Assembly (NCBI RefSeq): GCF_013122565.1 | Contig: NZ_CP053258.1 | Length of the DNA: 64,000 nt | Strand: one strand, 5' to 3' | Source: Escherichia coli | Lineage (GTDB): Bacteria; Pseudomonadota; Gammaproteobacteria; Enterobacterales; Enterobacteriaceae | Part shown: positions 11,083 through 42,993 of the stretch, piece by piece | Position numbering within the stretch: position 1 is the stretch's first letter | Layout of the letters: each line of letters starts with the position of its first letter | Made by a program: the position numbers and the translations under genes | Notes under the pieces: generated by a model | Database searches by the model: none | What the model was told of the DNA's origin: nothing | Seen by the model: the letters and a program-made list of their open reading frames with translations, nothing else

Positions 11083-11084
11083 GG

Positions 11085-11295: not shown

Positions 11296-11371
11296 TGGTG
11301 GGTCGTGCAGGATTCGAACCTGCGACCAATTGATTAAAAGTCAACTGCTCTACCAACTGAGCTAACGACCC
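11296..11371 (-). tRNA. lysT: tRNA-Lys (UUU)
   Basis: Identical 76-nt tRNA-Lys copy; first gene of the operon on the minus strand. Confidence 0.9.
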
Positions 11372-12327: not shown

Positions 12328-12336
12328 GCAATTCTC

Positions 12337-12882
<546 letters not shown>

Positions 12883-21287: not shown

Positions 21288-22232
21288 ATGAGTCCTGATA
21301 ATATCGGTTCGGCTGTCAATCGCTTCTCAGGTTGGCCATCTAATGATCCTCTAAAAACAGATAAAGAATCAACGACATCACCCGTGACAGTGCAGGTAAT
21401 AAAGATGATTGCCGCCATCCTTGACCCACATCGGATAGTCGTTGGAATCGATACACTTTATACAACGCAGCGCGAAACATTTACCTCAGAGAGTCAACAG
21501 CTCATTGAATCAGCATTGCAAACACTTCATGTGATGAATTTAAATAACCTGGAAACAAATCGCGATGAAGAAGGTCACTATCTGGCTTTTGAATATAACG
21601 TTGACACCTCTGACAGAATAACCGTTTCTGCTTACAATGAAAAAAATCCTGGCTGCTATGGCCAATGTCTTTTAATACAGGATGACGAAACAGACTTATT
21701 CAACCTGATAAAAATTAAAATTTTTGAAGCCAGGCATAATTATGTCGCTCAATTGATGAGCGATCCAGAATTTATGTTCAAATTCAGTTATAGCGCTCAA
21801 CAAAATAGATTAGAACCTCATCTTCTGGTTCCCGCTTATTTCCCTCTAAAAACAAACGAACCGGTTACGCAAGAGGATGTACTGTTACTTTATCGTTTCT
21901 TTAAAATGAATGATGATTTTAACAAATTAACATCAGATGAATACATGAGTATCCTGACACCTCTGATGAAGTGTGAGCGTAGCGTCCACGACAACAACAG
22001 GTATGTGACGGGCAAAGATACCCTTCTTCTGGACTATCCTCCTTCTGGTAACCAGATACATTTCCATGTTTTCCCTGACGAATCAGCAACACTAGTCCTT
22101 TATTTTTCAAACAATGACCTTGAATATTTCGTCTTTGAAAGAGATATTCCGAGCCAGTATCGCTTTTTCAAAATGTTTACCAATCTGGCACTGGTTATAG
22201 ATCAGTTAACCGAAGCCCATAAAATACTTTAA
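21288..22232 (+). CDS. hypothetical protein, 314 aa, AT-rich codon usage, no recognisable motif
   Basis: ATG at 21288 with a GAGG RBS 8 nt upstream; Ser/Thr/Pro-rich N-terminus; no family recognised by eye. Confidence 0.55.
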   Translation: MSPDNIGSAVNRFSGWPSNDPLKTDKESTTSPVTVQVIKMIAAILDPHRIVVGIDTLYTTQRETFTSESQQLIESALQTLHVMNLNNLETNRDEEGHYLAFEYNVDTSDRITVSAYNEKNPGCYGQCLLIQDDETDLFNLIKIKIFEARHNYVAQLMSDPEFMFKFSYSAQQNRLEPHLLVPAYFPLKTNEPVTQEDVLLLYRFFKMNDDFNKLTSDEYMSILTPLMKCERSVHDNNRYVTGKDTLLLDYPPSGNQIHFHVFPDESATLVLYFSNNDLEYFVFERDIPSQYRFFKMFTNLALVIDQLTEAHKIL

Positions 22233-22312
22233 TTTTCTATATATCCCTATGGCAAATATTGCTAAACAATGCCTGGGGATTAATTTTTATTACTCACGGA
22301 AAGATTTAAATA

Positions 22313-22735
22313 ATGATATCATCTCAGATCTCTTTCAGTACTCTTCCTGTCAATGCAACATACGCTTCAGAGACAACAGTTGACACACAAAAATTCTCTG
22401 ACATCCTCTACTCAGCGGGGTGTTCCCTAAAGGATATGGCTTATCTGAGCAGATGTCTGGCATCAATACACCCGACTATCGCCAAAAACATTTATGAAAC
22501 AGAAAATCTCAGCGATCAAAAATTACTGCATATTGATTGCCGTAGTACAAATGACATCAAGATAAATATCTTTTTTGGTCAGCAACGAGAAGGATTAATT
22601 GAAATTAGTTCTGACACAGTTATTTTTTCGATACTGTCTTCATTGATTGACTCCGCCATTTCTAAATTTCAACATCAAAACCCGGTTAACGGTTCAGTTA
22701 ATCCTGAACTATTGTATGAGGATTATACTGATTAA
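22313..22735 (+). CDS. hypothetical small acidic protein, 140 aa
   Basis: Co-directional ORF 80 bp after the 314-aa ORF, same AT-rich composition; weak RBS, so the start is uncertain. Confidence 0.45.
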   Translation: MISSQISFSTLPVNATYASETTVDTQKFSDILYSAGCSLKDMAYLSRCLASIHPTIAKNIYETENLSDQKLLHIDCRSTNDIKINIFFGQQREGLIEISSDTVIFSILSSLIDSAISKFQHQNPVNGSVNPELLYEDYTD

Positions 22736-23281
22736 ATCCACCCTGTCGCGAAAAATGGCCTGCGTTATTGCCAGACGTAATAAAACCTTTGATTAACGTT
22801 ACTCATACTGATAGCACCTTCATGTACCTCTCTTTTTTACGCAAATCAAAAGAGCTAACGAAGGTCATAATTCGCATGAATCATTAACCATTTGTTATTT
22901 TCAACATTACTTTTACATTAAGCAGAAATGAATGGTAGTGAAATTCGACTTAAATTTTATGAAATGCATTTACTTATGGCTAAACCCATATCACTAAAAT
23001 GCAAATTAGAAGTAGATCACAAATATCTCAATACACCAAATCAAGTTAATTTTAAAAATTTAACATTCATGACATTAGTTGACATAACACACTGAATTAA
23101 CATGGAAATTTAAAAACACACTTTAAACAATCATTTCCCGAAAGACATTTTGAAAATAGATCAATTGCAACATTACGGTCAGATAAAGACACTCCTGTGA
23201 TATTAAACCTGTGCCGTTATGAACGGCCATAAATACGACGTGTGTAACTTATTTTACTCTCTGTCTTACAAAGGATTACCC

Positions 23282-23731
23282 ATGAAGAAAGCAACACTTG
23301 TGATTGGCGTTATTGGCGCGGACTGCCATGCAGTAGGCAATAAAGTTCTGGACCGCGTTTTTAGCAACCACGACTTCAGAGTCATTAATCTGGGCGTAAT
23401 GGTCAGCCAGGACGAATATATTGATGCTGCCATTGAAACTGGCGCTGACGCGATTGTCGTCTCCTCTATCTATGGGCATGGCGATATCGACTGTCTGGGC
23501 ATGCGCGAACGCTGCATCGAGCGTGGACTGGGGGACATCCTGCTCTATGTGGGCGGTAACCTGGTGGTAGGAAAACATGACTTCGCTGACGTGGAAAACA
23601 AGTTCAAAGAGATGGGATTTGATCGCGTCTTTGCCCCAAGTCATGACTTAGAAGAGGTTTGTCAGCTGATGGCCCACGATATCAACCAACGTCATGACGT
23701 TGATACTCGCATTCTTGAAGAGGCAATCTGA
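23282..23731 (+). CDS. mamA: glutamate mutase sigma (S) subunit, B12-binding (methylaspartate mutase small subunit)
   Basis: ORF 23219..23731 trimmed to the ATG at 23282 after AAGGA; [24 protein letters not shown] carries the DxHxxG cobalamin-binding motif and aligns with clostridial GlmS/MutS. Confidence 0.85.
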
Positions 23732-25119
23732 TGCAAATCGTCTCTGTCGATATTGGATCGACGTGGACCAAAGCAGCCCTCTTCACCCGGGAGGGGGACG
23801 CGTTAACGTTGGTTAACCACGTACTGACCCCAACCACCACCCATCATCTGGCGAAGGGGTTTTTCTCCAGCCTGAACCAGGTGTTAAACGTAGATAATGC
23901 CCTCCCCCTGTTAAACAGCGGTGAGGTTGCATTGAAGTATTCCTCCTCTGCCAAAGGTGGGCTGGCGGTTGCCGCAATGGGATTGGTGCCTTCTATCACC
24001 CTGGAAACCGCGAAAGTAACCGCTCACTCTGCGGGTGCTAAAATTGCGCAATATTACGCCTACAAGCTGAACCGCCGTGATATCCAGGCACTGGAAGAAA
24101 CGCAGCCCGATATTCTCTTGTTCACCGGCGGCACCGACGGCGGAGAAGAAAGCTACGGACTGAATAACGCCCGTGTGCTGGCAGAATCCAAACTCGACTG
24201 CGCCATTATTTATGCCGGAAACCGGGATATTCAGGACGAGGTGCAGGAGATCCTCGGACATAAAGACCTGACCATCGTCGACAACGTTCTGCCCGATCTT
24301 GACCATCCGAACCCTTTAGCCGCACGCCAGGCTATCTGCGACATATTCCTTAAACGCATCGTTAAAGGGAAAGGGCTGGATGTCATTGTTGATAAAACAG
24401 GCGAAGAACCAATGCCGACACCATGGACGGTCTTTGAACTGGTTAAGGCAATCAGTAACGTCGATCACAGCTGGAAAGAGTTCATGCTGATCGACATGGG
24501 CGGCGCAACCACCGATGTCTATTCCGCCTGTGCCAACACGCTCTCGCCCGACACCGTTTTACACGGCGTACCGGAACCCTTCGTAAAACGGACGGTGGAA
24601 GGCGATCTGGGAATGCGCGTCTCGGCAATGGTGGTTGGTGAAAGTGCGAAAGAGTTAGTCAATGTAAATTTTGCTCAGCAACCCGCACAGCTGGACGCTT
24701 TTTATCATTACCTCCGTCATTTAGTCGCTCATCCCGACTACTTACCCGCGAATGCAGAAGAAAAATATTTCGATACCGTCCTGGCCGGACTGTGTGTGGG
24801 TTATGCCACCGAAAGACATGCGGGCACCAAAAAAGAGGTCTGCACCTGCGTCGGCAATGTCGATTTACAAATGGGACGTGACCTGACAACCGTGCGTAAA
24901 GTCGTCGGATCCGGCGGATGGCTCTCGCGTGCCAGTCAGTTCGATATGCATCACTGGTTGAAATACCGCGAGTTAAACGACGACGGTAAACGCATTCTCT
25001 TACCGACCGAATTTGAATATTACCGCGATTCCCGGGGGCTATTACCACTGCTGGCAAACGTCGCCAGAGTCGATCCGCTGGCCGCCGCGCGCACCAGTAT
25101 TCAATGCTTAACCCTATAA
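23731..25119 (+). CDS. glmL: glutamate mutase L protein (GlmL/MutL, putative chaperone/reactivase)
   Basis: 462 aa, starts [18 protein letters not shown] (actin-like ATPase N-terminus); start overlaps the S-subunit stop (tgATG); sits between S and E as in clostridial operons. Confidence 0.8.
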   Translation: MQIVSVDIGSTWTKAALFTREGDALTLVNHVLTPTTTHHLAKGFFSSLNQVLNVDNALPLLNSGEVALKYSSSAKGGLAVAAMGLVPSITLETAKVTAHSAGAKIAQYYAYKLNRRDIQALEETQPDILLFTGGTDGGEESYGLNNARVLAESKLDCAIIYAGNRDIQDEVQEILGHKDLTIVDNVLPDLDHPNPLAARQAICDIFLKRIVKGKGLDVIVDKTGEEPMPTPWTVFELVKAISNVDHSWKEFMLIDMGGATTDVYSACANTLSPDTVLHGVPEPFVKRTVEGDLGMRVSAMVVGESAKELVNVNFAQQPAQLDAFYHYLRHLVAHPDYLPANAEEKYFDTVLAGLCVGYATERHAGTKKEVCTCVGNVDLQMGRDLTTVRKVVGSGGWLSRASQFDMHHWLKYRELNDDGKRILLPTEFEYYRDSRGLLPLLANVARVDPLAAARTSIQCLTL

Positions 25120-25137
25120 CAATTAAGGCTGCAATCA

Positions 25138-26583
25138 ATGGAACTTCGAAATAAGAAATTAACCCATGACGAATTCATGACCGAGCGGCAACAGGTACTG
25201 AAAACCTGGGAAACCGGCAAGGATGTTGAAAATTTTGAAGATGGCGTTAAATACCAACAAACCATTCCTGAGCATAAACGCTTCTCTCTCGCCCTGCTGA
25301 AAGCAGACAAGGAAGGTAAAACCCTTAGCCAACCGCGCGCAGGTGTGGCGCTGATGGACGAACACATCGAACTACTGAAAACACTACAAGAAGAGTGCGA
25401 TCTGCTGCCAAGCACCATCGATGCATATACCCGTCTGAATCGGTACGAAGAAGCGGCTGTAGGGATTAAAAAATCCATCGAAGCCGGAACCTCTAAACTG
25501 AACGGTTTACCGGTAGTTAACCACGGAGTCGCAGCTTGCCGTCGCCTCACCGAAACCCTGCAAAAACCGCTACAGATCCGCCACGGCACGCCAGATGCGC
25601 GTCTGCTGGCTGAAATCTCGATGGCCAGTGGCTTTACCAGTTACGAAGGCGGCGGCATTTCCTACAACATTCCGTATGCCAAACGCGTAACGCTGGAAAA
25701 ATCGATCCGCGACTGGCAGTACTGCGACCGTTTAATGGGGATGTATGAAGAACACGGGATCCGCATCAACCGCGAACCATTTGGCCCACTAACGGGTACG
25801 CTGATCCCGCCGTTTATCTCGCACTCTATCGCCATAATCGAAGGCTTGCTGGCGCTGGAACAGGGTGTGAAATCTATCACCGTTGGTTATGGCCAGGTCG
25901 GCAGCCTGACGCAGGATGTTGCGGCGATCCAGTCTCTGCGTGAACTTGCACATGAATACTTTCAGAGCTATGGCTATACCGACTATGAATTAAGTACCGT
26001 GTTTCACCAGTGGATGGGCGGCTTTCCGGAAGACGAATCGAAAGCGTTCGCTATTATCTCCTGGGGCGCAGCCGTCGCGGGGATGTCTGGTGCCACCAAA
26101 GTCATCACCAAAAGTCCGCACGAAGCCTGGGGTATCCCAACTGCCGCTGCCAACATTCAGGGGCTGAAAGCCTCCCGCCAGATGCTCAACATGGTCAATG
26201 AGCAGAAATTCCCGCCATGCCCTGCGGTTGAACTGGAAATTGAACTGATTAAGAGCGAGGTTCGCGCGGTACTGAATAAAGTGTTCGAACTGGGTAATGG
26301 TGATATTGCGCGCGGTACGGTGCTGGCATTTGAAGCGGGCGTACTGGATGTGCCGTTTGCGCCAGCCGCCTGCAACGCGGGCAAAATTCTTCCGGTCCGT
26401 GACAACACCGGCGCGATACGCGTACTGGAAGCCGGAGCCGTTCCATTGCCAAAAGATATTCTCGACCTCCACCACGATTACGTTGCGGAACGCGCACGCT
26501 GTGAAGGACGCCAACCGACATTCCAGATGGTTGTAGATGACATCAATGCTGTATCCCACAGTAAATTAATAGGAAGACCATAA
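25138..26583 (+). CDS. mamB: glutamate mutase epsilon (E) catalytic subunit (methylaspartate mutase large subunit)
   Basis: 481 aa, starts MELRNKKLTHDEFMTERQQVLKTW; conserved blocks PRAGVALMDEHIELL, HGTPDARLLAEI, FHQWMGGFPEDESKAF match clostridial GlmE. Confidence 0.88.
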   Translation: MELRNKKLTHDEFMTERQQVLKTWETGKDVENFEDGVKYQQTIPEHKRFSLALLKADKEGKTLSQPRAGVALMDEHIELLKTLQEECDLLPSTIDAYTRLNRYEEAAVGIKKSIEAGTSKLNGLPVVNHGVAACRRLTETLQKPLQIRHGTPDARLLAEISMASGFTSYEGGGISYNIPYAKRVTLEKSIRDWQYCDRLMGMYEEHGIRINREPFGPLTGTLIPPFISHSIAIIEGLLALEQGVKSITVGYGQVGSLTQDVAAIQSLRELAHEYFQSYGYTDYELSTVFHQWMGGFPEDESKAFAIISWGAAVAGMSGATKVITKSPHEAWGIPTAAANIQGLKASRQMLNMVNEQKFPPCPAVELEIELIKSEVRAVLNKVFELGNGDIARGTVLAFEAGVLDVPFAPAACNAGKILPVRDNTGAIRVLEAGAVPLPKDILDLHHDYVAERARCEGRQPTFQMVVDDINAVSHSKLIGRP

Positions 26584-27824
26584 TGAAAATAAAACAGGCC
26601 CTGTTCACCGCTGGCTATTCCTCATTCTATTTCGATGACCAGCAGGCGATAAAAAACGGAGCGGGTCACGACGGCTTTTTTTATACCGGGGAGCCAGTAA
26701 CACAGGGGTTTAACGCCGTACGTCAGGCCGGGGAGTGCGTATCGGTACAGTTGATTCTGGAAAACGGCGCGGTCGCTGTAGGTGACTGTGCTGCCGTACA
26801 GTATTCCGGGGCAGGTGGTCGCGATCCACTGTTCCTCGCAGAGCACTTTATTCCGTTCCTCAACGACCATATTAAGCCATTACTGGTAGGCCGCGATGTG
26901 GATACTTTCCTGCCGAATGCCCGTTTCTTCGACAAATTGCGTATTGACGGCAACTTGCTGCATACCGCCGTGCGCTACGGATTATCACAGGCGCTGCTTG
27001 ATGCTACCGCGCTGGCAACCGGCCGTCTGAAAACTGAAGTGGTCTGTGATGAATGGCAGTTGCCACGCGTGGCGGAATCCATTCCATTATTTGGTCAGAG
27101 CGGCGACGATCGATATATCGCCGTCGATAAGATGATCCTTAAGGGCATCGACGTGCTGCCCCATGCGCTGATTAATAACGTCGAAGAGAAGCTGGGCTTT
27201 AAAGGTGAAAAACTGAGCGAATATGTCCGCTGGTTGTCGGATCGCATTCTAAGCAAGCGCACCAGCGCGCGCTACCACCCTACCCTGCACATCGATGTAT
27301 ACGGCACTATCGGTCTGATCTTCGATATGGATCCGCTCCGCTGTGCGCAATACATCGCCAGCCTGGAAAAAGAAGCGCAAGGCCTGCCGCTCTACATCGA
27401 AGGGCCGGTCGATGCCGGTAACAAGCCCGATCAAATTCGCCTGCTGACCGCGATTACCAAAGAGCTGACGCGCCTCGGTTCCGGCGTGAAAATTGTGGCC
27501 GATGAATGGTGTAACACCTACCAGGATATTGTTGATTTCACTGATGCTGCCAGTTGTCACATGGTGCAAATCAAAACCCCGGATCTGGGCAGTATTCACA
27601 ACATCGTCGATGCGGTTCTTTACTGCAACAGCCACAGCATGGAAGCGTACCAGGGCGGCACCTGCAATGAAACTGATGTCAGTGCCCGCACCTGTGTCCA
27701 CGTCGCCCTTGCCGCTCGCCCTATGCGTATGCTGGTAAAACCAGGGATGGGCTTTGACGAAGGCCTCGATATCGTCTTCAACGAAATGAATCGTACTATC
27801 GCGCTGTTGCAGGCTAAGGATTAA
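26583..27824 (+). CDS. 3-methylaspartate ammonia-lyase (beta-methylaspartase)
   Basis: 413 aa, start overlaps the E-subunit stop (taATG); blocks CAAVQYSGAGGRDPLF, FGQSGDDRY, HMVQIKTPDLG, CNET match clostridial methylaspartase (enolase superfamily). Confidence 0.88.
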   Translation: MKIKQALFTAGYSSFYFDDQQAIKNGAGHDGFFYTGEPVTQGFNAVRQAGECVSVQLILENGAVAVGDCAAVQYSGAGGRDPLFLAEHFIPFLNDHIKPLLVGRDVDTFLPNARFFDKLRIDGNLLHTAVRYGLSQALLDATALATGRLKTEVVCDEWQLPRVAESIPLFGQSGDDRYIAVDKMILKGIDVLPHALINNVEEKLGFKGEKLSEYVRWLSDRILSKRTSARYHPTLHIDVYGTIGLIFDMDPLRCAQYIASLEKEAQGLPLYIEGPVDAGNKPDQIRLLTAITKELTRLGSGVKIVADEWCNTYQDIVDFTDAASCHMVQIKTPDLGSIHNIVDAVLYCNSHSMEAYQGGTCNETDVSARTCVHVALAARPMRMLVKPGMGFDEGLDIVFNEMNRTIALLQAKD

Positions 27825-27827
27825 CAA

Positions 27828-29198
27828 ATGGCTCGTTCTTTTAAAGTCTTATCGCCAACGGCAATCCTCGGGTATGGATTCCCGGAAGAGAGCTTCCGCA
27901 AAGCGATGGCAGAATCGCCCGATCTGATCGCCGTTGATGCCGGCTCTTCCGATCCAGGCCCCCACTACCTCGGGGCAGGCAAACCGTTTACCGATCGCGC
28001 AGGGGTCAAGCGCGATCTGCGCTATATGATCACCGCAGGCGTGCAAAATAATATACCGGTGGTGATCGGAACGGCTGGCGGTTCTGGTGCCGCACCACAC
28101 CTGGAGTGGTGCCGAGAAATAATTCATGAGATTGCCCGGGAAGAGCACCTCTCGTTCTCGATGGCGTTGATCCCGGCAGACGTTGACAAAGCCATCGTCC
28201 ACCAGGCGCTGGATAACGGCAAAATCACGGCGCTGGATTTTGTCCCGCCGTTAACCCACGACGCGATTGACGAAAGTACGTATATCGTTGCGCAAATGGG
28301 CATCGAACCCTTCCAGCGGGCTCTGAAAGAAGGCGCGCAAGTGGTGCTGGGCGGGCGCGCTTACGACCCGGCCTGCTTTGCTGCGCTCCCGATCATGCAA
28401 GGCTTTGATGAAGGTCTGGCGCTGCATTGTGGGAAAATCCTTGAGTGCGCAGCAATCGCCGCAACGCCCGGCTCAGGCTCTGACTGTGCGATGGGCATCA
28501 TTGATGACAACGGCTTTACGCTGAAGACATTTAATCCGAAGCGTAAATTTACCGAAACGTCAGCAGCTGCACACACACTGTATGAAAAATCCGATCCCTA
28601 CTTCCTGCCAGGACCTGGCGGCGTGTTGAACCTGAAAGGCTGCACATTTAAAGCAGTCAATGACGGCGAAGTCTACGTCAGCGGTTCTAAGCATGAAGAA
28701 ACGCCGTATGCCCTGAAACTGGAAGGTGCACGACGGGTGGGCTTCCGCTGTCTGACCATCGCCGGAACGCGCGACCCGATCATGATCGCCGGGATCGATA
28801 AAATCATCGATGAAGTCAAAATCAGCGTTTCGCGTAACCTGTCGCTTGACGATGACAGCATTCGCATCAATTTCCACCTGTACGGCAAAAACGGGGTGAT
28901 GGGCGACCATGAACCGATGCAAACTACCGGGCATGAGCTGGGGATTGTCCTTGATGTAGTTGCACCGACCCAGGAAATTGCCAACAGCGTTTGCTCGCTG
29001 GTGCGCTCTACCATGCTGCACTACGGCTATGAAAACCGCATCGCTACCGCAGGCAACCTGGCGTTCCCGTTCTCCCCTTCTGATATCCAGGGCGGGCCGG
29101 TATACGAATTTTCCATATATCACCTGATTGAAGCCAACGACGCTCTGCGTTTTGATTTCCATATTGAACAGGTGACGCCAGAAGGAGTTCAGGTATGA
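27828..29198 (+). CDS. uncharacterised protein, 456 aa (tentatively AtuA-like/DUF1446-type; family not verified)
   Basis: ATG at 27828 with AAGGA 7 nt upstream, 3 bp after the methylaspartase stop; Gly-rich, no cofactor motif recognised by eye. Confidence 0.6.
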   Translation: MARSFKVLSPTAILGYGFPEESFRKAMAESPDLIAVDAGSSDPGPHYLGAGKPFTDRAGVKRDLRYMITAGVQNNIPVVIGTAGGSGAAPHLEWCREIIHEIAREEHLSFSMALIPADVDKAIVHQALDNGKITALDFVPPLTHDAIDESTYIVAQMGIEPFQRALKEGAQVVLGGRAYDPACFAALPIMQGFDEGLALHCGKILECAAIAATPGSGSDCAMGIIDDNGFTLKTFNPKRKFTETSAAAHTLYEKSDPYFLPGPGGVLNLKGCTFKAVNDGEVYVSGSKHEETPYALKLEGARRVGFRCLTIAGTRDPIMIAGIDKIIDEVKISVSRNLSLDDDSIRINFHLYGKNGVMGDHEPMQTTGHELGIVLDVVAPTQEIANSVCSLVRSTMLHYGYENRIATAGNLAFPFSPSDIQGGPVYEFSIYHLIEANDALRFDFHIEQVTPEGVQV

Positions 29199-29512
29199 AA
29201 CAGTCAATTGTCTCACTGGCGCAAGTCATTCGTTCGAAAAATGCCGGTCCTTACGAACTGGTTTTAGATATTTTATTTAAAACGAAAGAAAACTATGAGC
29301 GAGTTAAATCATCAGGGCAATTAACCCCAGAACTGATTGCGCGCTTATATCATGTTGAACCTGACTTTATTCATCGTATTGTCTGGTTTGATCCTTCTAA
29401 CGCAGTAAAAATCGTCATGCCACGAGATATTATCTCCGGGAATGTAGGTGACAATGATGTCTATGGTGCACAGCAACATGCACCTTTATTAAATATGAGT
29501 TTCGATTTGTAA
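29195..29512 (+). CDS. uncharacterised small protein, 105 aa, translationally coupled to the preceding ORF
   Basis: ATG at 29195 overlaps the upstream stop (ATGA); no recognisable motif. Confidence 0.55.
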   Translation: MKQSIVSLAQVIRSKNAGPYELVLDILFKTKENYERVKSSGQLTPELIARLYHVEPDFIHRIVWFDPSNAVKIVMPRDIISGNVGDNDVYGAQQHAPLLNMSFDL

Positions 29513-29672
29513 AAATCCGAACACTTTTAGCCAACTGACATCCCATCACTTATTGCAGTTCAACACTTCAGCTATTTGTAAGGTTGTAATAGCAGGTAGA
29601 TGCCTGAGTCTCTATTCAGGCATCTACTTCTCCTGATTCTGATTTATCGCCGTGCACCTGATGGAGGAAAAA

Positions 29673-30953
29673 ATGAAGAAAATAAGTTTAACCACGATGA
29701 TTCTTTTGGCGCTGGTACTTGGAATGATTATCGGCGTAGTGCTCAATAACACTGCTTCACCGGAAACCGCAAAACTCTATGCGCAAGAAATATCGATATT
29801 CACGACGATTTTCTTACGACTGATAAAAATGATTATCGCTCCGTTAGTGGTCTCTACCCTGGTGGTAGGTATAGCTAAAATGGGCGATGCCAAAGCCCTT
29901 GGTCGTATTTTTTCTAAAACACTTTTTTTATTTATTTGCGCCTCATTGCTGTCAATTGCCTTAGGCTTGATAACAGTAAATTTCTTCATGCCAGGCACAG
30001 GAATTAATTTTGTTGCACACGGAGCCGAAACCACCGGAGTGGTCGCGTCAGAACCCTTTACGCTAAAAGTATTTATTTCGCATGCTTTCCCCACCAGCAT
30101 TGTCGATGCCATGGCGCACAATGAAATTTTGCAAATCGTGGTGTTCTCAATTTTCCTCGGCTGTAGCCTGACGGCGATTGGCGAGAAAGGCAGCGCCATC
30201 GTTCACGCCTTAGATTCGCTGGCACATGCCATGTTAAAGCTCACTGGCTACGTCATGCTCTTCGCTCCCCTGACCGTATTCGCCGCTATTTCAGCATTGA
30301 TTGCTGAACGAGGACTGGCAGTTATGGTGAGCGCCGGGATCTTTATGGGTGAATTTTATTTCACCATGTTGTTACTTTGGGTACTGCTTATCGGTCTGGC
30401 CATCGTTTATGTCGGCCCCTGCATCAGACGCCTGACCCGCGCCCTTTCGGAACCCGCCCTGCTGGCATTTACCACATCCAGTTCTGAAGCGGCTTTTCCG
30501 GGAACGCTTGAAAAACTGGAGCAATTTGGCGTTTCCCCCAAAATTGCCAGCTTTGTCTTACCCATTGGCTACTCATTTAATCTCGTTGGATCAATGGCCT
30601 ACTGCTCCTTCGCCACAGTTTTCATCGCCCAGGCCTGCAATATCCATTTATCCATCGGTGAGCAAATCACCATGCTGTTGATCCTGATGTTGACCTCGAA
30701 AGGAATGGCTGGCGTACCACGCGCCTCAATGGTGGTTATCGCCGCCACGCTCAACCAGTTCAATATTCCGGAAGCAGGGCTGATCTTGCTGATGGGCGTT
30801 GATCCGTTCCTTGATATGGGGCGTTCCGCGACAAACGTCATGAGCAACGCAATGGGCGCTGCGATGGTGAGTCGGTGGGAAGGCGAACATTTCGGCGAGG
30901 GCTGTCGGGGTAAAGCATTAAAACCCAATGAATCGAACGTTGCTCTGCCCTGA
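29673..30953 (+). CDS. dicarboxylate/amino acid:cation symporter (GltP/DctA family), candidate glutamate or C5-dicarboxylate transporter
   Basis: ORF 29652..30953 trimmed to the ATG at 29673 after GGAGGA; polytopic, with the family serine-rich motif (TTSSSEAAFPGTLEKLE) as in GltP. Confidence 0.8.
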   Translation: MKKISLTTMILLALVLGMIIGVVLNNTASPETAKLYAQEISIFTTIFLRLIKMIIAPLVVSTLVVGIAKMGDAKALGRIFSKTLFLFICASLLSIALGLITVNFFMPGTGINFVAHGAETTGVVASEPFTLKVFISHAFPTSIVDAMAHNEILQIVVFSIFLGCSLTAIGEKGSAIVHALDSLAHAMLKLTGYVMLFAPLTVFAAISALIAERGLAVMVSAGIFMGEFYFTMLLLWVLLIGLAIVYVGPCIRRLTRALSEPALLAFTTSSSEAAFPGTLEKLEQFGVSPKIASFVLPIGYSFNLVGSMAYCSFATVFIAQACNIHLSIGEQITMLLILMLTSKGMAGVPRASMVVIAATLNQFNIPEAGLILLMGVDPFLDMGRSATNVMSNAMGAAMVSRWEGEHFGEGCRGKALKPNESNVALP

Positions 30954-31060
30954 GGGGGATCTTAAGCAATCAGAAGCCAATGACTACGCATTTTTATAAG
31001 CCGGATCATGAAGTTAGACGGCAATTAAGTAACACTAACGTTTAAGGTGAAAAGTGAAAT

Positions 31061-32713
31061 ATGTCCAAACCATTTATCTGGCAAGAACCGTTTCTACAAA
31101 ATAAAGACGGTACAGAATATACATTAATTAGCGATCAACATATTACAGTAACGGAATTAGACGGCGAAGAAGTGATAAAAATCGCTCCTGAAGCATTAAC
31201 GCTGCTTGCCCGGCAGGCATTTTATGAAGCCTCTTTTTTCTTACGTTCCGCTCATTTGCAACAGGTCGCCAGCATTCTTAACGATCCGCAGGCCAGTAGT
31301 AATGATAAATACGTTGCGTTGCAGTTATTACGTAATGCTGAAGTCTCAGCAAAAGGGGTATTACCCAACTGTCAGGATACCGGCACCGCAACTATTGTTG
31401 CCAGGAAAGGGCAACAGATATGGACCGGAGGTAACGACGCTGAAGCCTTAAGCAAAGGCATTTACACCACTTTCCAGGAAAATAATCTGCGCTTTTCACA
31501 AAATGCGCCGCTGGATATGTATACCGAAGTCAATACGCAAACCAATCTCCCGGCGCAGATTGATATCAGCGCCGTCGCTGGTGATGAGTACCATTTTCTC
31601 TGTGTTAATAAAGGGGGCGGCTCCGCCAATAAAGCCACGCTTTATCAGGAAACCAAATCCTTATTGCAACCAGAAAAACTGACCGCATTTTTAATCGAAA
31701 AAATGAAATCGCTGGGCACCGCTGCCTGCCCGCCTTACCACATCGCCTTTGTCGTCGGAGGGCTTTCAGCCGATCAAACCTTAAAAGTTGCCAAGCTGGC
31801 TTCTACGAAATATTACGACAATTTGCCCACCAGCGGAAACGAGCAGGGACAAGCATTCCGTGATATTGAGCTGGAAAAAGTGATGCTCGAGGCCAGTCAG
31901 CAATTTGGTATTGGTGCGCAATTTGGGGGTAAATATTTCGCTCATGATATTCGCGTCATTCGTCTGCCGCGTCACGGTGGCTCCTGCCCGATAGCTATGG
32001 CGCTCTCCTGTTCAGCCGATCGCAATATCAAAGCAAAAATTAACAAGCACGGTATCTGGCTGGAAAAACTCGAACACAATCCGGGGCAATATATTCCAGC
32101 CTCACTATGGGAAGAAAATCACGCGCAACATGTACAACTGGATCTAAACCGTCCGTTGCGTGACGTGATGCAGGATCTCGCCAGATTACCGGTAGGTACC
32201 CGCGTGTCGTTAAGTGGTCCCATCGTAGTGGCGCGCGATATCGCCCACGCCAAAATAAAAGCGCGGCTGGATAGCGGCGAATCGATGCCGGAGTACCTGA
32301 AGCATCATATTGTCTATTACGCTGGCCCGGCGAAAACACCGGAGAACATGGCCTGCGGTTCACTAGGTCCAACCACGGGCGGTCGAATGGACGGTTATGT
32401 CGATACCTTCCAGGCTGCTGGCGGCAGTCTGGTGATGTTATCGAAAGGTAACCGCAGCCAGCAGGTCACCGATGCCTGTCACAAACATGGTGGCTTCAAT
32501 CTGGGAAGTATTGGCGGTGCAGCTGCGTTACTGGCGCAAGAATATGTCAAAAGTCTGCGTTGCCTGGAATACCCGGAGCTGGGTATGGAAGCGGTGTGGA
32601 TGATGGAAGTGGAAAATCTGCCCGCATTCATCCTGGTAGATGATAAAGGCAATAATTTCTTTAGTCAGTTTGAGCAGCAACACCGCTGCGCCAGTTGCCC
32701 TGCGGGACATTAA
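31061..32713 (+). CDS. class I (Fe-S) fumarate hydratase family protein, FumA/FumB paralogue; candidate mesaconase
   Basis: 550 aa, full-length similarity to FumA as remembered (blocks [55 protein letters not shown]); context suggests mesaconate hydration. Confidence 0.85.
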
Positions 32714-32722
32714 GGAAAATGA

Positions 32723-33325
32723 ATGGAAGCGCGAATTTCAACTGAACGGCATGTGCAGCGCCAGCAGAAATTGAAGGAACAGGTCGATACGCGCGTCGCG
32801 GCGGCGATAGAGAAAAAAGGGATCTTGATTGTTTTCACCGGCAATGGCAAAGGGAAATCCACTGCCGCGTTTGGTACGGTGACGCGCGCGGTGGGTCATG
32901 GCAAAACGGTGGGGGTTGCGCAGTACATCAAGGGGCAATGGGACAACGGCGAATACAACCTTCTCCAGCCGCTCGGGGTTGAGTTTCATATTATGGGAAC
33001 CGGTTTTACCTGGGAGACACAGAACCGGCAAGCGGATATCGACGCGGCGAAAGAGGTCTGGTCGGAAAGCAAACGGATGCTGGCTGACAAGCGTTACGAC
33101 TTAGTGGTGCTTGATGAGCTGACCTATATGCTGGCTTACCATTATCTGGATACCGAAGAAGTGATCGCTTCTCTGCAAAACCGCCCGGCACAACAAAGTG
33201 TCATTGTCACCGGACGCGGTTGCCACAGTCAGATATTAAAAATGGCGGATACGGTCAGCGAAATCCGCCCCGTCAAACATGCTTTTGATAACGGCATTCA
33301 GGCCCAGCCGGGTATCGACTGGTAA
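32723..33325 (+). CDS. cob(I)alamin adenosyltransferase, BtuR/CobA-family paralogue
   Basis: 200 aa with P-loop GNGKGKSTAAFG and full-length similarity to BtuR as remembered; AAGGA RBS; last gene of the operon. Confidence 0.85.
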   Translation: MEARISTERHVQRQQKLKEQVDTRVAAAIEKKGILIVFTGNGKGKSTAAFGTVTRAVGHGKTVGVAQYIKGQWDNGEYNLLQPLGVEFHIMGTGFTWETQNRQADIDAAKEVWSESKRMLADKRYDLVVLDELTYMLAYHYLDTEEVIASLQNRPAQQSVIVTGRGCHSQILKMADTVSEIRPVKHAFDNGIQAQPGIDW

Positions 33326-33328
33326 TAA

Positions 33329-33356
33329 CTGCGCCTGGCATCCCGCCAGGCGCAGG
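33329..33356. terminator. bidirectional terminator between the B12-operon end and the convergent LysR gene
   Basis: Perfect 11-bp inverted repeat ctgcgcctggc / gccaggcgcag around a 5-nt loop, followed by gtttt. Confidence 0.7.
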
Positions 33357-33358
33357 TT

Positions 33359-34264
33359 TTACATCTCCTGCGGTACGACCGATTTCGCCAGCAACCATTC
33401 ACGAAATTGCTGCAAGTGCGGCGAGTCAGACTTCTCTTCCTGCCACGTCATAATAAAACGATTACCGGTACGAATAGGCACATCACAGGGAATCACCATA
33501 TCGCCACTATCCAAATCATGTTGAATAGCGAACCGTGGTAACAGCGCCACGCCGAGATTAGAGCGCACGGCGGCAATCAACATTGAAAGCAAATCGAAAC
33601 GTGGCCCGTTGTTGACCAGCGGACTGCTAACGCCAGATAAAGCAAACCACTCTTCCCAGCCAGTAATACGGGTGCTTTGATGCAGAAGTGGTAACTCAGT
33701 AAGCAGTTCTGCCACTGACAGTTTTTGATCGGACATTGCAAGCAAACTGCCGCTGCATACCGGCAAAATCTCCTCTTCAAAGAGATATTCTACTTCCGCC
33801 CAGGGCGCGCAAAAATTTTCGCGCATAATGACAGCATCGTACTCCCGATTAAGAAAATCGCCGTTATTAGCTAAAGAATGAATATTAACAATAATATCGG
33901 GATGTAACTTTGTGAATTCATGTAAATTTGGGATTAACCAGTGGGTACTAAAAGTAGGATTAACGGCAAGTTCAATAACCTGAACCGTAGGCTGCCAGGT
34001 CATAATGGTATTGGTATCGCGTTCCAGCTTATTTAATGTTTCTTTTACTATCCCCAGGTAATACTTCCCTGCATCATTAAGAAAAATACGTTTTTTAGAG
34101 TGTGAAAATAACGGAGTACGTAAAAATTCCTCCAGCGCACTTACTTGTCTGAATACTGCACTTTGGGTTAACGCTAACTCCTCTGCCGCTCTGGTATAAC
34201 TTTCATGACGTGCGACGACCTCAAAAGTCACCAGCAGTTCCGTTTTAGGTATTTTTCCTCGCAT
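33359..34264 (-). CDS. LysR-family transcriptional regulator
   Basis: ORF 33359..34294 trimmed to the Met after a ggaagg RBS (MRGKIPKTELLVTFEVVARHESYTRAAEELALTQSAVFRQVSALEE is a typical LysR HTH); about 301 aa. Confidence 0.85.
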   Translation of the reverse strand: MRGKIPKTELLVTFEVVARHESYTRAAEELALTQSAVFRQVSALEEFLRTPLFSHSKKRIFLNDAGKYYLGIVKETLNKLERDTNTIMTWQPTVQVIELAVNPTFSTHWLIPNLHEFTKLHPDIIVNIHSLANNGDFLNREYDAVIMRENFCAPWAEVEYLFEEEILPVCSGSLLAMSDQKLSVAELLTELPLLHQSTRITGWEEWFALSGVSSPLVNNGPRFDLLSMLIAAVRSNLGVALLPRFAIQHDLDSGDMVIPCDVPIRTGNRFIMTWQEEKSDSPHLQQFREWLLAKSVVPQEM

Positions 34265-34854
34265 AATGCCTTCCGTGAAAAAATAACAATTCAAAAAATT
34301 ATTTTATAAAAAACAGTAGCGCTAATGAATATCATAATTCAAATAAACAAACCAGTCAGCTATATGTCTAACCAGGAAAATAAAGTGACAATAATCCTAA
34401 AACAGGAATTTCACCTCAGTTATCCGCATGCAATGCTTTAAAGCCATTATTGCAAGAATATTATTCATATACATGAATATACTCTAAATAAGTCGAGTTG
34501 GAGGAAGGGAACAAATAATGAATTTCCAGAAGCTTACATAAGTAAGTGACCTGGGTGAGCGAACATCGATGCAGCACATGCAACTTGAATTATGACAAGT
34601 ATACAATGATAAATTTAGATACCCTATGTTATATATTATCTATGTCCGGTTAAATTGAATGAGTCATGGCCTTCAAAGACATCGCAAAAGATAATTTCTC
34701 TTTAACAATAAGCCAGATTTACCACTTGTAAAAATTGCTATCGCCACATACACTACGCGCGTTTTCTTTCCCTTTTGCTGGCTGCTGACCGGAAAGACAA
34801 AATTACCCTCGCAATACAGGGGGTTGTTTAACGTCTATATTTCAGGACAGCGTT

Positions 34855-36252
34855 ATGCATCATCTTTCAAGGCTTGATAAAGCCTTTCTGCGCAAAGGGA
34901 TCCAACTTTCCCGCGCCAACAATATTGTTTCATTATCTCGTCCATCAGGTGTCAGTGCCCGCGTACTGCTGCCAGACGAACTGCCGCTGGAAGAAAAAGC
35001 AGTAACACAACTGCTTGATTTTGCAGAAGTGAAGCTACCAGACCACCCAGGTTATGTACGCCAGACGTGTGCGACGCCAGATTTTCATCCCGGCAATGGC
35101 GTCCCCGTTGGCGCGGTGGTAGCCTCAACGCCGGATTTAGTCATTCCCGCCGCCATCGGCACCGATATTTCTTGTGGCATGCGGCTGCTGACGACCGGAA
35201 TAACACTTGAGCAAGCCGAAGCGCATAAAGACGTCATCACTCAGCGGTTAACGCAAGTGTTACTGCAAAATGAGCGCGATGTTCCGTTATCTGCACGAGC
35301 GTTCACCGCGCTTTTTGATGGCGGGCCGGCAGATTGCATGTCGGCCTTGCCATCAGCAGGTCTCTGGACACGCACGAATATCCCCCGAATGGTACAAGAG
35401 ATTGACCGCTGCATTGGGCTGAACGAGCATAAAAGTCATTCGCGTTATGCCCCACCCGCCCTGCTGGCAACGGACCGCGCATTACTCCGCGACCCTTGTC
35501 TGGGTACGCCGGGTTCAGGTAATCATTTTATTGAACTTCAGGTAGTTGATAGCGTGATCGATCGCCATGTAGCCTGGCAACAAGGGCTGAAAACAGGCGA
35601 TATCGTGGTGATGATCCATAGTGGATCGCGAGATGTCGGCTTTTACGTCGGACGACGCTGGACGGACCGTGCCCGCGCAGACTGGCCCGCTGGGCATAAA
35701 CATCCACAAAGCGGGTTATATGGTCTGGCTGGTGGACTGGCGGAGGAATATCTACAAGCGATGGGAATGGCGGCGCGTTACGCATGGTTAAATCGCGTGA
35801 CCATTACGGAAATGGTGCGCGTATGTTTTGCCGATTTATTCCATCAGGATGAATCACATCTGGTGGTGGATGTGCCGCATAACATCATCCTTCGCGAGCA
35901 TGAGATGAATATTCATCGCAAAGGCGCAACACCGGCACGTGCGGGCGATCTGGCGTTAATCCCCGGTTCAATGGGCGATTATTCGTGGCTTGCGGTAGGT
36001 TGCGGCAACCCGGAGTGGTTGTGGTCATGCAGTCACGGAGCAGGACGCAGCCAGCGTCGGCAGGCCATGCGCGCACACGCGACTGAAGAGTCAACGCTGC
36101 CGTGGCAATGCGTAACACTGCGTGAAGAACGGCGTATTGAGGAAGCGCCAGCTGCTTATAAAGATATTGGTCCGGTTATCGAAGCCCAACAAGAAGCTGG
36201 ATTAATTCAGCCAGCGGTCAGATTTCGACCGTGGTTAACGTTTAAGGCATAA
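34855..36252 (+). CDS. RtcB-family RNA ligase paralogue (465 aa, N-terminally extended)
   Basis: Motifs typical of RtcB: PDFHPGNG, GTDISCGM (cf. GVDIGCGM), and HGAGR near the C-terminus; divergent from the LysR gene across 590 bp. Confidence 0.75.
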   Translation: MHHLSRLDKAFLRKGIQLSRANNIVSLSRPSGVSARVLLPDELPLEEKAVTQLLDFAEVKLPDHPGYVRQTCATPDFHPGNGVPVGAVVASTPDLVIPAAIGTDISCGMRLLTTGITLEQAEAHKDVITQRLTQVLLQNERDVPLSARAFTALFDGGPADCMSALPSAGLWTRTNIPRMVQEIDRCIGLNEHKSHSRYAPPALLATDRALLRDPCLGTPGSGNHFIELQVVDSVIDRHVAWQQGLKTGDIVVMIHSGSRDVGFYVGRRWTDRARADWPAGHKHPQSGLYGLAGGLAEEYLQAMGMAARYAWLNRVTITEMVRVCFADLFHQDESHLVVDVPHNIILREHEMNIHRKGATPARAGDLALIPGSMGDYSWLAVGCGNPEWLWSCSHGAGRSQRRQAMRAHATEESTLPWQCVTLREERRIEEAPAAYKDIGPVIEAQQEAGLIQPAVRFRPWLTFKA

Positions 36253-36274
36253 AAAAGGCCATCATACGATGGCC
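36251..36274 (-). terminator. rho-independent terminator of the sdh-suc transcript / SdhX
   Basis: Hairpin ggccatc-gtat-gatggcc followed on the minus strand by a U-run (plus-strand aaaaaa at 36251-36256); begins immediately after the RtcB-like stop codon. Confidence 0.75.
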
Positions 36275-36349
36275 AACCATGTCGAAACCGACAGCCCTTC
36301 GCCATTCCTGTAGAGGGAAGCGGCGAGGGCTATTTCTTATTACAGATAT
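36251..36349 (-). ncRNA. sdhX: putative SdhX (RybD) sRNA from the sucD 3' UTR
   Basis: About 100 nt between the sucD stop (36350) and the terminator; contains ...caggaauggcgaagggcugucgguuucgacaugguuggccaucguaugauggccuuuu, which matches my recollection of the SdhX 3' region. Confidence 0.5.
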
Positions 36350-37219
36350 TTATTTCAGAACAGTTTTCAGTGCTTCACCGATATCCGCCAGGCTGCGAAC
36401 GGTTTTCACGCCTGCGGCTTCCAGAGCCGCGAATTTCTCATCCGCAGTCCCTTTCCCACCGGCAATGATGGCACCTGCGTGGCCCATACGTTTGCCTTTC
36501 GGCGCAGTCACACCAGCGATGTAACCTACAACTGGCTTGGTAACGTGCTCTTTGATGTACGCTGCTGCTTCTTCTTCAGCGCTACCGCCGATCTCACCGA
36601 TCATCACGATCGCTTCGGTCTGCGGATCTTTTTCGAACATTTCGAGGATGTCGATAAAGTTAGAGCCAGGGATCGGGTCACCGCCGATACCAACACAGGT
36701 CGACTGACCGAAACCGTAATCCGTGGTCTGTTTAACCGCTTCATAGGTCAGTGTACCGGAACGGGAAACGATACCCACTTTACCCGGTTTGTGAATGTGA
36801 CCAGGCTGGATACCGATTTTGCATTCACCTGGGGTGATAACGCCCGGGCAGTTCGGGCCGATCATACGAACGCCGGCTTCATCCAGTTTCACTTTCACAG
36901 TCAGCATATCCAGCGTCGGGATGCCTTCAGTGATGGTGATAATCAGTTTGATGCCTGCGTCGATGGCTTCCAGAATGGAGTCTTTGCAGAACGGTGCTGG
37001 TACGTAGATAACAGAAGCGGTAGCGCCAGTGGCAGCAACGGCTTCACGCACGGTGTTGAACACCGGCAGGCCGAGGTGGGTGGTGCCGCCTTTACCTGGG
37101 GTTACGCCGCCAACCATTTTAGTGCCGTATGCAATAGCCTGTTCTGAGTGGAAAGTCCCCTGGCTACCGGTAAAACCCTGGCAGATAACCTTGGTGTTTT
37201 TATCAATTAAAATGGACAT
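36350..37219 (-). CDS. sucD: succinyl-CoA synthetase alpha subunit
   Basis: 289 aa, [45 protein letters not shown]. Confidence 0.95.
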
Positions 37220-38467: not shown

Positions 38468-38640
38468 CCCGTAGGCCTGATAAGACGCGTCAGCGTCGCA
38501 TCAGGCATCGCTTGTCGGATGCGGCGCGAGCGCCTTATCCGACCTACATCGGTGCTTCCCGTAGGCCTGATAAGACGCGTTAAGCGTCGCATCAGGCTTC
38601 AATGGCCGGAGAAGGCGATAATGCCTTATCCGGTCTACAG
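38468..38640. repeat. REP/BIME cluster in the sucB-sucC spacer
   Basis: Two tandem ~85 bp units each beginning cccgtaggcctgataagacgcg...gcgtcgcatcaggc, typical REP palindromes. Confidence 0.75.
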
Positions 38641-42872: not shown

Positions 42873-42993
42873 CGCCTGATGCGCTGCGCTTATCAGGCCT
42901 ACGGGTAATGACGTGTAGGCCGGATAAGGCGTTCACGCCGCATCCGGCACTGGTTGCCTGATAAGACGCTTGAGCGTCTTATCAGGCCTACGG
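42873..42993. repeat. REP/BIME cluster in the sdhB-sucA spacer
   Basis: gcctgatgcgctgcgcttatcaggcctacg ... gcctgataagacgcttgagcgtcttatcaggcctacg palindromic units. Confidence 0.75.

Follow-up and report, generated by a model that had tools for sequence, protein, structure and literature searches.

SdhX (RybD) is an Hfq-dependent small RNA that originates from the 3' UTR of the sdhCDAB-sucABCD operon in K-12 and Salmonella (Miyakoshi et al., 2019, PMC6393394), and it has also been described by De Mets et al. (2019, as cited in PMC9438474). In both organisms RNase E releases it as Hfq-binding species of ca. 101 nt and 38 nt. Its targets are ackA and, in E. coli, also fdoG and katG, which it represses through a seed immediately upstream of the terminator (PMC6393394, PMC9438474). 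This seed pairs with ackA at its AUG-UCG start. The determinants specific to E. coli are G62, at the processing site, which serves fdoG pairing and provides the 5' end of the 38-nt form (SdhX2), and the segment around C34, which pairs with katG and for which a C34G mutant has been described (PMC6393394).

We have analysed a stretch of 64,000 nucleotides from an E. coli genome (contig NZ_CP053258.1; hereafter the window) in which the 3' end of sucD faces a convergent gene of the RtcB family of RNA ligases. Its features are collected in Table 1; the RefSeq annotation of the window genes is that of a near-identical strain, ETEC1738. Our main reading, to which we would give a probability of about 0.85, is that the minus strand at 36251-36349 is the canonical SdhX gene, that the convergent RtcB gene came to end in its A tract after the loss of mngB, mngA and mngR (mngBAR), and that the whole is K-12-like, with no special effect on the small RNA. 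SdhX at the 3' end of sucD beside a convergent gene is an already known and ordinary arrangement.

Table 1. Features around the 3' end of sucD (positions in the window).
Feature	Position	Strand	Basis or remark
SdhX (RybD) region, sucD 3' UTR	36251..36349	-	nt 1 = 36349, nt 99 = 36251
sucD (succinate--CoA ligase alpha subunit)	36350..37219	-	ORF list; ETEC1738 annotation WP_000025458.1
SdhX seed UUCGACAUGGU, core CGACAU	36276..36286	-	Identical to the published seed (PMC6393394)
Processed form SdhX2, 38 nt, G62 to U99 (seed and terminator)	36251..36288	-	Coordinates derived from sequence
5' stem-loop of full-length SdhX, including the segment around C34 for katG pairing, specific to E. coli	36294..36330	-	Predicted fold
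Rho-independent terminator of the sdh-suc operon and SdhX	36251..36274	-	7-bp stem and 4-nt loop 36274..36257, U6 36256..36251
Joint of variable and core DNA	36243..36250		Breakpoint between 36247 and 36248; junction sequences of 8 loci
15.4-kb segment absent from K-12, in place of mngR-mngA-mngB	20859..36247		ETEC1738 RefSeq annotation
RtcB-family RNA ligase gene, 465 aa, convergent with sucD	34855..36252	+	Pfam PF01139; RefSeq "RtcB family protein"
Candidate plus-strand terminator	36294..36341	+	Antisense copy of the SdhX 5' hairpin (36294-36330), then UAUUUCUUAUU (36331-36341)

The SdhX gene and its conservation

In the window sucD is the last gene of sdhCDAB-sucABCD, preceded on the same strand by sucC, sucB (odhB), sucA and sdhBADC, and its TAA stop codon (36352..36350) is followed at the very next base by SdhX. 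An earlier note on this DNA had proposed that the sucD 3' UTR encodes SdhX and that these ca. 100 nt should be compared with the K-12 RNA. The direct comparison bears the proposal out: from the sucD stop to U6, 99 of 99 nt (100%) are identical to those of a K-12-like strain, and the seed UUCGACAUGGU is present without a single difference. It ends at 36276, directly 5' of the terminator stem, which begins at 36274, and the published residues are in place (nt 34 is C, at 36316; nt 62 is G, at 36288). In other words, locus, 99-nt sequence, seed, C34, G62, terminator and U6 are those of the known K-12 system and the RNA itself shows no difference. Given this identity the same function is expected, that is, processing, Hfq binding and target regulation as in K-12. 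SdhX would be made as the tail of the sdhCDAB-sucABCD mRNA, ended by the Rho-independent terminator. It is unaltered despite the non-K-12 DNA next to it, and acetate metabolism should be under the same SdhX control as in K-12.

The predicted fold of all 99 nt has an energy of -40.8 kcal/mol (z = -4.4), which none of 200 shuffles equals. An SdhX allele at least 99% identical is found in 4296 of 5426 complete E. coli genome records (ca. 79%), and among these 5,426 records a full-length match is missing from just one genome, with an IS1 insertion. The variation among E. coli classes is restricted to the 5' stem-loop and the terminator loop, and the seed was unchanged in all seven structural classes aligned (7/7). 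The assignment was made by direct sequence comparison and not by a covariance model: a scan of the whole window with Rfam 15 at the gathering score gave no match to an SdhX family, and the library apparently lacks an SdhX model. Within 36100-36500, at E <= 10, the only resemblance was to isrD (17.3 bits against a cutoff of 37); it was confined to the terminator and below the cutoff, and an isrD identity for 36251-36349 was dropped. An 81-aa open reading frame on the plus strand (36279-36524) was not retained as a gene, its ATG-TCG start being the complement of the SdhX seed and its remainder antisense to sucD.

A one-directional terminator facing a convergent gene

The stem-loop that closes SdhX reads GGCCAUC-GUAU-GAUGGCC on the minus strand (36274..36257) and is followed by UUUUUU; the stem has a stability of -11.5 kcal/mol, and the consensus terminator scan calls it as a minus-strand terminator. 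In K-12, Term-seq places a 3' end (19,842 and 34,704 reads) at 765148(+), the last U of U6, equivalent to window position 36251. Read on the plus strand, the hairpin has AACCATG (AACCATGTCG) downstream and no T tract, and the consensus scan called no plus-strand terminator between the RtcB stop codon and sucD. As the earlier note had it, the U tract lies on the minus strand only; its coordinates also hold (RtcB stop ending at 36252, minus-strand hairpin from 36251/36257). However, the stop codon does more than abut SdhX, since bases 36251-36252 complement the last two U of its tail. Bidirectional intrinsic terminators are a general class found between convergent E. coli genes, with which this terminator shares a single hairpin between genes and an A tract on one side. 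They need a U-rich tract on both strands, whereas here there is one on one side and the SdhX seed on the other, and the SdhX terminator is outside their definition.

The first base that differs from K-12 is at +7 after the stem (A here, G in K-12), and everything beyond differs too. An A at +7 is also found in some mngR-bearing strains. This difference may affect termination or the Hfq-binding tail.

A gene that converges on SdhX is not special to this strain. K-12 has a convergent gene in the same place, mngR, lying on the same strand as RtcB, whose TAA stop codon is followed by GCAC and then AAAAAAGGCC. In both cases the convergent gene ends a few nucleotides from the SdhX 3' end, against a one-directional terminator. 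The differences lie in the product (MngR, a GntR-type repressor, in K-12; an RtcB-family RNA ligase in the window) and in the exact spacing: the mngR stop is 4 nt from the same A/U tract, whereas the RtcB stop (TAA, 36250-36252) shares two bases with the A tract from which the U tail of SdhX is transcribed. As K-12 shares the convergent geometry, any argument from antisense read-through holds equally for this reference strain, where SdhX was characterised. Judged from its sequence, the RtcB/SdhX layout is functionally equal to mngR/SdhX, and no special effect on SdhX is expected.

Origin of the joint between cydA and sucD

The DNA between cydA and sucD is a variable region, and the SdhX terminator is its limit on the core side. 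Homology to the cydA-proximal spacer of K-12 ends at 20858, and the other edge falls within 36243-36249. The segment in the window carries two hypothetical genes, glmS, glmL and glmE, genes for methylaspartate ammonia-lyase, an AtuA-family protein, a DUF4387 protein, a dicarboxylate symporter and a class I fumarate hydratase, then cobO, a LysR regulator and RtcB. The methylaspartate (mesaconate) pathway serves glutamate fermentation, and its gene cluster is known from some E. coli, O157:H7 and 042 among them. It has the same genes (glmS, glmL, glmE, methylaspartate ammonia-lyase, class I fumarate hydratase, cobO and LysR) and the same cydA-sucD position as in the window. In 042 and most carriers of the cluster, however, RtcB survives only as remnants of 57 and 44 bp, whereas in the window it is intact. 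RtcB is not peculiar to the glm segment: the RtcB/SdhX joint was found in glm+RtcB, hut+RtcB and RtcB-remnant classes, so that the same joint stands beside the hut cassette in other strains. As estimated from evenly spaced samples of the 5,426 genomes, most strains have the mngR/SdhX layout (21 of 30 records), and roughly 2% of E. coli have an intact RtcB at the SdhX joint.

At the joint, RtcB-derived ...TTTAAGG meets CATAAAAAAGGCC, which in mngR-bearing strains is the sequence downstream of the mngR stop codon; the TAAG is common to both parents. A composite strain, 2012C-4502, has the complete run RtcB-mngB-mngA-mngR-sucD, and BLAST against it aligns the window up to 36247 and resumes from 36243, with the 5.6 kb between missing. 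The RtcB-mngB joint exists in 134 genomes. Both in 2012C-4502 and in Escherichia sp. MOD1-EC7003 RtcB ends AAG GGG TAA and mngB follows; the full mngB-mngA-mngR-sucD order was read in 2012C-4502 only, the contig of MOD1-EC7003 ending inside mngB. Besides, the mngR-bearing strain 4/1-1 carries the same CATAAAAAA as the window.

The joint thus appears better read as a deletion of mngB-mngA-mngR than as the insertion of an island at the terminator, although the direction of the change is one that we infer. The three genes would have been deleted, in the lineage of the window, from a composite RtcB-mngBAR-sucD ancestor, and the final codons of RtcB would thereby have been joined to a few bases from just downstream of the mngR stop. 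The last codon and the stop codon of RtcB are indeed formed across the joint, an indication that after a deletion the terminator spacer and A tract of a neighbouring gene can supply the end of a protein. One extra G at the joint is not expected from a clean TAAG-mediated deletion. The earlier note had acquired DNA joined directly to the SdhX 3' end; what stands of this is that non-K-12 DNA starts at most 4 nt away, and the joining itself is better explained by the loss of mngBAR.

The alternative is that glm/RtcB DNA was inserted, or recombined, directly at the SdhX terminator and that mngBAR was added later in the composite strains. SdhX has four different neighbours, all starting within 36243-36249 (the fourth, a TPR pseudogene, at 36249), which would fit a preferred recombination limit. 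The cassettes seen between cydA and sucD (mannosylglycerate, methylaspartate/glutamate, histidine utilisation or hut, and the TPR pseudogene) have joins at most 7 bp apart. The TAAG on both sides of mngBAR in 2012C-4502 can be read as an insertion duplication, and the RtcB alleles, 94-96% identical between classes, are more divergent than the core. Against this, mngR/SdhX is the layout of most of the records sampled and the annotation of mngBAR holds no mobile-element features. Moreover, window bases 36248-36250 (CAT) match the sequence downstream of mngR in the mngR-bearing allele, which is easiest explained if mngR once lay there. We therefore consider insertion at the terminator unlikely and keep to the deletion of mngBAR. 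In either case, alternative cassettes that end at the SdhX terminator illustrate how tightly a 3'UTR-derived small RNA constrains the DNA adjoining it.

The RtcB gene and transcription across the terminator

The convergent open reading frame is a near full-length match to Pfam PF01139 (E = 1.5e-95; residues 63-464, profile positions 7-425 of 426), and solved RtcB structures match it at E around 1e-42. All six motifs compared with Thermus TTHA1785 (2epg), namely PDFHPG, GTDISCG, GSGNHF, HSGSR, PHN and HGAGR, are identical or near-identical. We take them to be the metal-binding and nucleotidyl-histidine catalytic motifs, with residue roles assumed from the Pyrococcus enzyme. The protein is not a member of the named bacterial subfamilies considered, the canonical RtcB of rtcBA and the release-factor-linked RtcB (NCBIfam equivalogs, 201.6 vs. 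a cut-off of 407 and 164.7 vs. 271.8), and no rtcA, rtcR or prfH is annotated near the gene. A search of genome contigs with this protein gave 8 loci, with homologues 57-62% identical in Burkholderiales, Gilliamella and Snodgrassella; such a single-protein query reaches close relatives only.

Could transcription of RtcB, as the earlier note suggested, pass the one-directional terminator and run antisense through SdhX into sucD, lowering the output of either? RNA duplexes cut by RNase III, or polymerase collision, would then make SdhX regulation specific to this strain. The reading frame looks intact, with the RtcB motifs retained, and past the hairpin the plus strand has AACCATG in place of a T tract. 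The seed must occupy the far side of the stem, so the terminator cannot be symmetrical, and the RtcB stop lies inside it, so no terminator is possible ahead of the joint. However, the geometry is the same in K-12, where SdhX is abundant and active (20-35 thousand Term-seq reads) and where, at the equivalent position (7650xx-7652xx), Term-seq lists no minus-strand 3' end for the transcript of the convergent gene and no antisense signal is reported. Promoter-like sequences upstream of RtcB are weak: the sigma-70 consensus gave 4 sites vs. 3.7 expected, no more than in shuffles of this AT-rich region, and the sigma-54 consensus of the canonical rtcBA operon (TGGCAC-N5-TTGCW) has no match anywhere in the window. 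Any antisense transcript would also meet a plus-strand hairpin of -21.8 kcal/mol, with UAUUUCUUAUU behind it, that lies within antisense SdhX just ahead of the sucD stop codon. It is identical in K-12, and the simple terminator scanner does not call it, its stem being interrupted. This candidate terminator could stop antisense transcription of sucD, without avoiding the overlap with SdhX. Further on, the antisense RNA is untranslated and rich in C (C/G 1.25-1.56 over 36353-36600), a typical Rho substrate. On balance we regard strain-specific read-through from RtcB as very unlikely, and retain the K-12-like reading.

Transcription might also cross in the other direction, with part of the sdh-suc transcripts passing the SdhX terminator, running antisense to RtcB until stopped by Rho, and damping RtcB when the operon is highly expressed. 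In K-12 a Rho termination region is found at 765604(+), ca. 450 nt beyond the 3' end of SdhX, in RNA antisense to mngR (Rho score 2.86, p = 2.3e-5), which indicates that read-through of this terminator does occur there, and the terminator sequence in the window is identical. Nevertheless, it is minor in K-12 (coverage without BCM is 21 downstream vs. 158 upstream), no phenotype is known for mngR, and the Rho loading sites are not comparable with RtcB downstream instead of mngR. An effect of this kind on RtcB seems to us quite unlikely, and here too the K-12-like reading is preferred.

A search of the literature on SdhX antisense transcription or an interplay with mngR gave nothing direct, and the supplements of PMC6393394 do not mention mngR, farR or antisense. 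Finally, we have considered, as an extremely improbable case, that the RtcB mRNA ends at ca. 36331-36341, with a 3' UTR of ca. 85 nt perfectly complementary to SdhX. The two would then form a cis-antisense pair in which the RtcB mRNA may sponge SdhX, or RtcB may be silenced through RNase III or Rho, set off by SdhX and sdh-suc read-through. If true, RNA repair would be tied to central metabolism in ca. 2% of E. coli, and something similar could hold for mngR in K-12.

Identity of the RNA beyond sucD

The window, from an E. coli chromosome, is in inverted orientation with respect to the K-12 map and runs through a Lys/Val tRNA array, cpoB-pal-tolBARQ-ybgC, cydXBA, a 15.4-kb block and sucDCBA-sdhBADC (minus strand). 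The block, between cydXBA and sucD, is not in K-12. The product predicted from its RtcB ORF matches Pfam PF01139 (E = 1.5e-95), is full-length for the RtcB family and has the complete set of conserved motifs; we take it as a genuine family member, with scores short of the cut-offs set for named bacterial subfamilies.

The minus-strand sequence of the 99 nt past the sucD stop is AUAUCUGUAAUAAGAAAUA-[hairpin]-GUCGGUUUCGACAUGGUU-GGCCAUC GUAU GAUGGCC-UUUUUU, the terminal stem-loop and U6 being recognized as a terminator by a consensus scan. Shuffled sequences fold much less well than the complete RNA (-40.8 kcal/mol, z = -4.4). The earlier note had tentatively assigned this 3' UTR to the SdhX sRNA and proposed comparing the 100-nt region with K-12; in the alignment to a K-12-like genome no base differs between the sucD stop and the end of U6, seed included. 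The published seed UUCGACAUGGU, which stands 5' of the terminator stem-loop (PMC6393394), is in place. In the published numbering, which starts where the sucD CDS ends (PMC6393394), residue G62, at the processing site of SdhX2, takes part in fdoG pairing and C34 in katG pairing; here these residues are a G and a C, and counting from G62 through U99 gives precisely the 38 nt of the minimal SdhX2. The strong K-12 Term-seq 3' end at 765148(+) (Adams et al., 2021, PMC7815308, supplementary file 1), flanked by ...GGCCTTTTTT before and GTGCTTATCG after, corresponds to the last U, window 36251. No Rfam 15 family matches the region and RefSeq has no ncRNA feature at this position, so membership rests on direct comparison with the characterized K-12 sequence. 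All of the sequence-level defining features of SdhX were found when tested and, judged by its sequence, this segment is SdhX (RybD) itself, unchanged. RNase E processing, Hfq binding and ackA repression would be expected here from the identity with K-12 (PMC6393394, PMC9438474). What we have is a known sRNA, real, in the right place and under the right name, in a layout equivalent to that of the reference strain.

A 104-nt query covering the RNA found full-length SdhX in 5,424 of 5,426 complete E. coli genomes (4,296 records at least 99% identical). Among seven structural locus classes only four columns of the 5' hairpin and one terminator-loop base vary, the seed and the SdhX2 5' end being invariant. 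In the mngR-bearing strain FDAARGOS_944 (L005 5191-6124) an IS1 within SdhX, whose 9-bp target duplication is the seed itself (TCGACATGG), parts the sucD 3' UTR from the terminator, a natural SdhX disruption.

Positions of the features in the window
Feature	Position	Strand	Remark
tRNA array	10375-11371	-	seven Lys/Val tRNA genes interspersed with three RtT-like repeats
cpoB/ybgF RNA thermometer motif	12298-12436	-	142 bits
Segment deleted in 2012C-4502	25624-34467		8.8 kb
ERIC/IRU-like repeat	34540-34561 (about 34505-34600)	+	in 560-bp LysR-RtcB spacer
RtcB module	34747-36247		RtcB plus 108 bp upstream
RtcB ORF	34855-36252	+	465 aa; stop TAA 36250-36252
RtcB fragments kept in 042	35979-36035, 36209-36252		57 bp and 44 bp
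SdhX	36251-36349	-	99 nt
Terminator stem-loop	36274..36257	-
U6	36256..36251	-
Seed	36286..36276	-
IS1 target in FDAARGOS_944	36277-36285
G62; C34	36288; 36316	-	G; C
Antisense copy of 5' hairpin	36294-36330	+	-21.8 kcal/mol
81-aa ORF	36279-36524	+	antisense to sucD
sucD	36350-37219	-
REP-type element, sucC/sucB	38474-38544	-	Rfam naRNA4, 74 bits; within sdh-suc operon
REP-type element, sucA/sdhB	42918-42988	+	Rfam naRNA4, 83.5 bits; within sdh-suc operon

The joint between RtcB and SdhX

The RtcB stop and the minus-strand terminator hairpin (36274..36251 with its U6) lie where they had been described, the sequence statements being all correct, and the stop overlaps the U tail by two bases. 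That K-12-absent DNA is joined to the SdhX 3' end also stands as an adjacency, with the qualification that in K-12 the gene past the terminator, mngR, also converges on sucD, shares its strand with RtcB and has its stop codon 4 nt from the A tract (...GCGATAA GCAC AAAAAAGGCC). The window reads ...ACGTTTAAGGCATAAAAAAGGCC at the joint, and K-12 homology beyond U6 consists of A/G-U-G-C only and then ends.

RtcB does not adjoin SdhX in E. coli 2012C-4502 and Escherichia sp. MOD1-EC7003, where it ends AAG GGG TAA and is followed by mngB on the opposite strand. The run mngB-mngA-mngR-sucD is read whole in 2012C-4502, whose RtcB-mngB joint is common to 134 genomes; the MOD1-EC7003 contig stops within mngB. 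Against 2012C-4502 the window aligns to 36247 and resumes from 36243, the intervening 5.6 kb being absent, with TAAG at both break points, and the mngR-bearing allele of strain 4/1-1 has CATAAAAAA past the mngR stop, the same as the window. The simplest reading would be that mngB-mngA-mngR was deleted and RtcB ...TTTAAGG fused to CATAAAAAAGG; because of this fusion, the joint would have created the last sense codon of RtcB, GCA (Ala instead of Gly), and its stop TAA, the last two bases of which are the complement of the SdhX tail. We infer the direction, deletion rather than insertion, and clean microhomology leaves one extra G unaccounted for.

The RtcB-linked mngB allele (2012C-4502 and a cryptic-clade strain) is only 81-88% DNA-identical to K-12-type mngB (2012C-4502 locus L017 9232-9543 compared with locus L016 3-314), a divergence far above that of flanking core genes which suggests an old or introgressed mngBAR allele. 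The methylaspartate cluster of 2012C-4502 has an internal deletion from the glmE interior to the spacer upstream of RtcB (L017 7300-7303), leaving glmS, glmL and a truncated glmE.

Possible antisense read-through

The earlier note had also considered that RtcB transcription could run antisense into SdhX and sucD. The U-tract is, as it said, on the minus strand only: past the stem the plus strand reads AACCATG, the seed complement, and with that side so occupied the terminator cannot be symmetrical. On this sequence it is a one-directional and not a bidirectional terminator; since the joint contains the RtcB stop codon, no terminator is possible ahead of it. Yet K-12 mngR/SdhX has the same geometry, and there SdhX is characterized and abundant. 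The plus strand has a terminator-like candidate, formed by the 5' hairpin in antisense with UAUUUCUUAUU after it, shortly ahead of the sucD stop; it is identical in K-12, where Term-seq lists no 3' end at its position. For about 250 nt beyond this hairpin, the antisense RNA, which is untranslated, has an excess of C (C/G 1.25-1.56), and C-rich untranslated RNA is the kind of substrate that Rho usually terminates. In K-12, termination by Rho in a region at 765604(+), antisense to mngR, shows that a minor share of sdh-suc transcripts extends past the SdhX terminator, so the only experimental sign of read-through there runs the opposite way, from sdh-suc into mngR antisense. The K-12 geometry, the plus-strand hairpin, the C-rich antisense RNA and this opposite direction together reduce the significance of antisense read-through, and we find a cis-antisense relation between the RtcB (or mngR) 3' UTR and SdhX highly improbable.

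The SdhX seed pairs with AUG-UCG of ackA (PMC6393394), and the ATG-TCG with which the 81-aa ORF begins is just the seed's complement; this ORF is very probably no gene. Upstream of RtcB the DNA is AT-rich, with no sigma-54 consensus and promoter-like matches at chance level; its ERIC/IRU-like repeat has 2 mismatches to the ERIC2 primer (0 matches expected by chance).

Neighbors of SdhX

Proportions of 30 or 40 refer to evenly spaced samples of the hit list (5,426 genomes). SdhX is neighbored by mngR-mngA-mngB in 21 of 30, by a TPR-repeat pseudogene joining at 36249 in 2 of 30, and in several sampled genomes by a hut (histidine utilization) cassette and then the same RtcB with the same joint; one genome has IS1 in the seed. 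The methylaspartate cluster with intact RtcB joined to SdhX is rare (the window and the near-identical strain ETEC1738), RtcB decayed to 57-bp and 44-bp remnants, as in 042, being common among carriers. In 993 genomes the RtcB sequence joined to SdhX comprises its final 44 bp or more. Intact RtcB is so joined in roughly 7 of 40 sampled RtcB matches (of 690), which corresponds to about 120 genomes (about 2%), as estimated from query end points in the sample; the sampled rows suggest that more than half of the 690 are remnant-only. This is a variable locus, with the SdhX terminator as its boundary. Since these alternative neighbors include RtcB intact, decayed or hut-linked, it is not part of one particular island and is an interval resident kept, lost or re-joined by lineage. 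Of its description as an acquired-island gene the joint with SdhX survives, and membership of one island does not (hut, mngB and remnant contexts).

RtcB with its 108 bp upstream appears as a separate module (compared loci L007, L008, L009 and L017), adjoining the hut cassette, the methylaspartate cluster or mngB. Identity of its alleles to the window is no more than 94-96%, vs. about 98-99% for the core, and the closest non-Escherichia relatives found (Burkholderiales, Gilliamella, Snodgrassella) are 57-62% identical. In 042 (L003 8944-9044) the two fragments still abut SdhX; sampled matches suggest the same two-fragment RtcB in a few hundred other genomes, and the remnant is annotated as a "hypothetical protein" in some RefSeq records.
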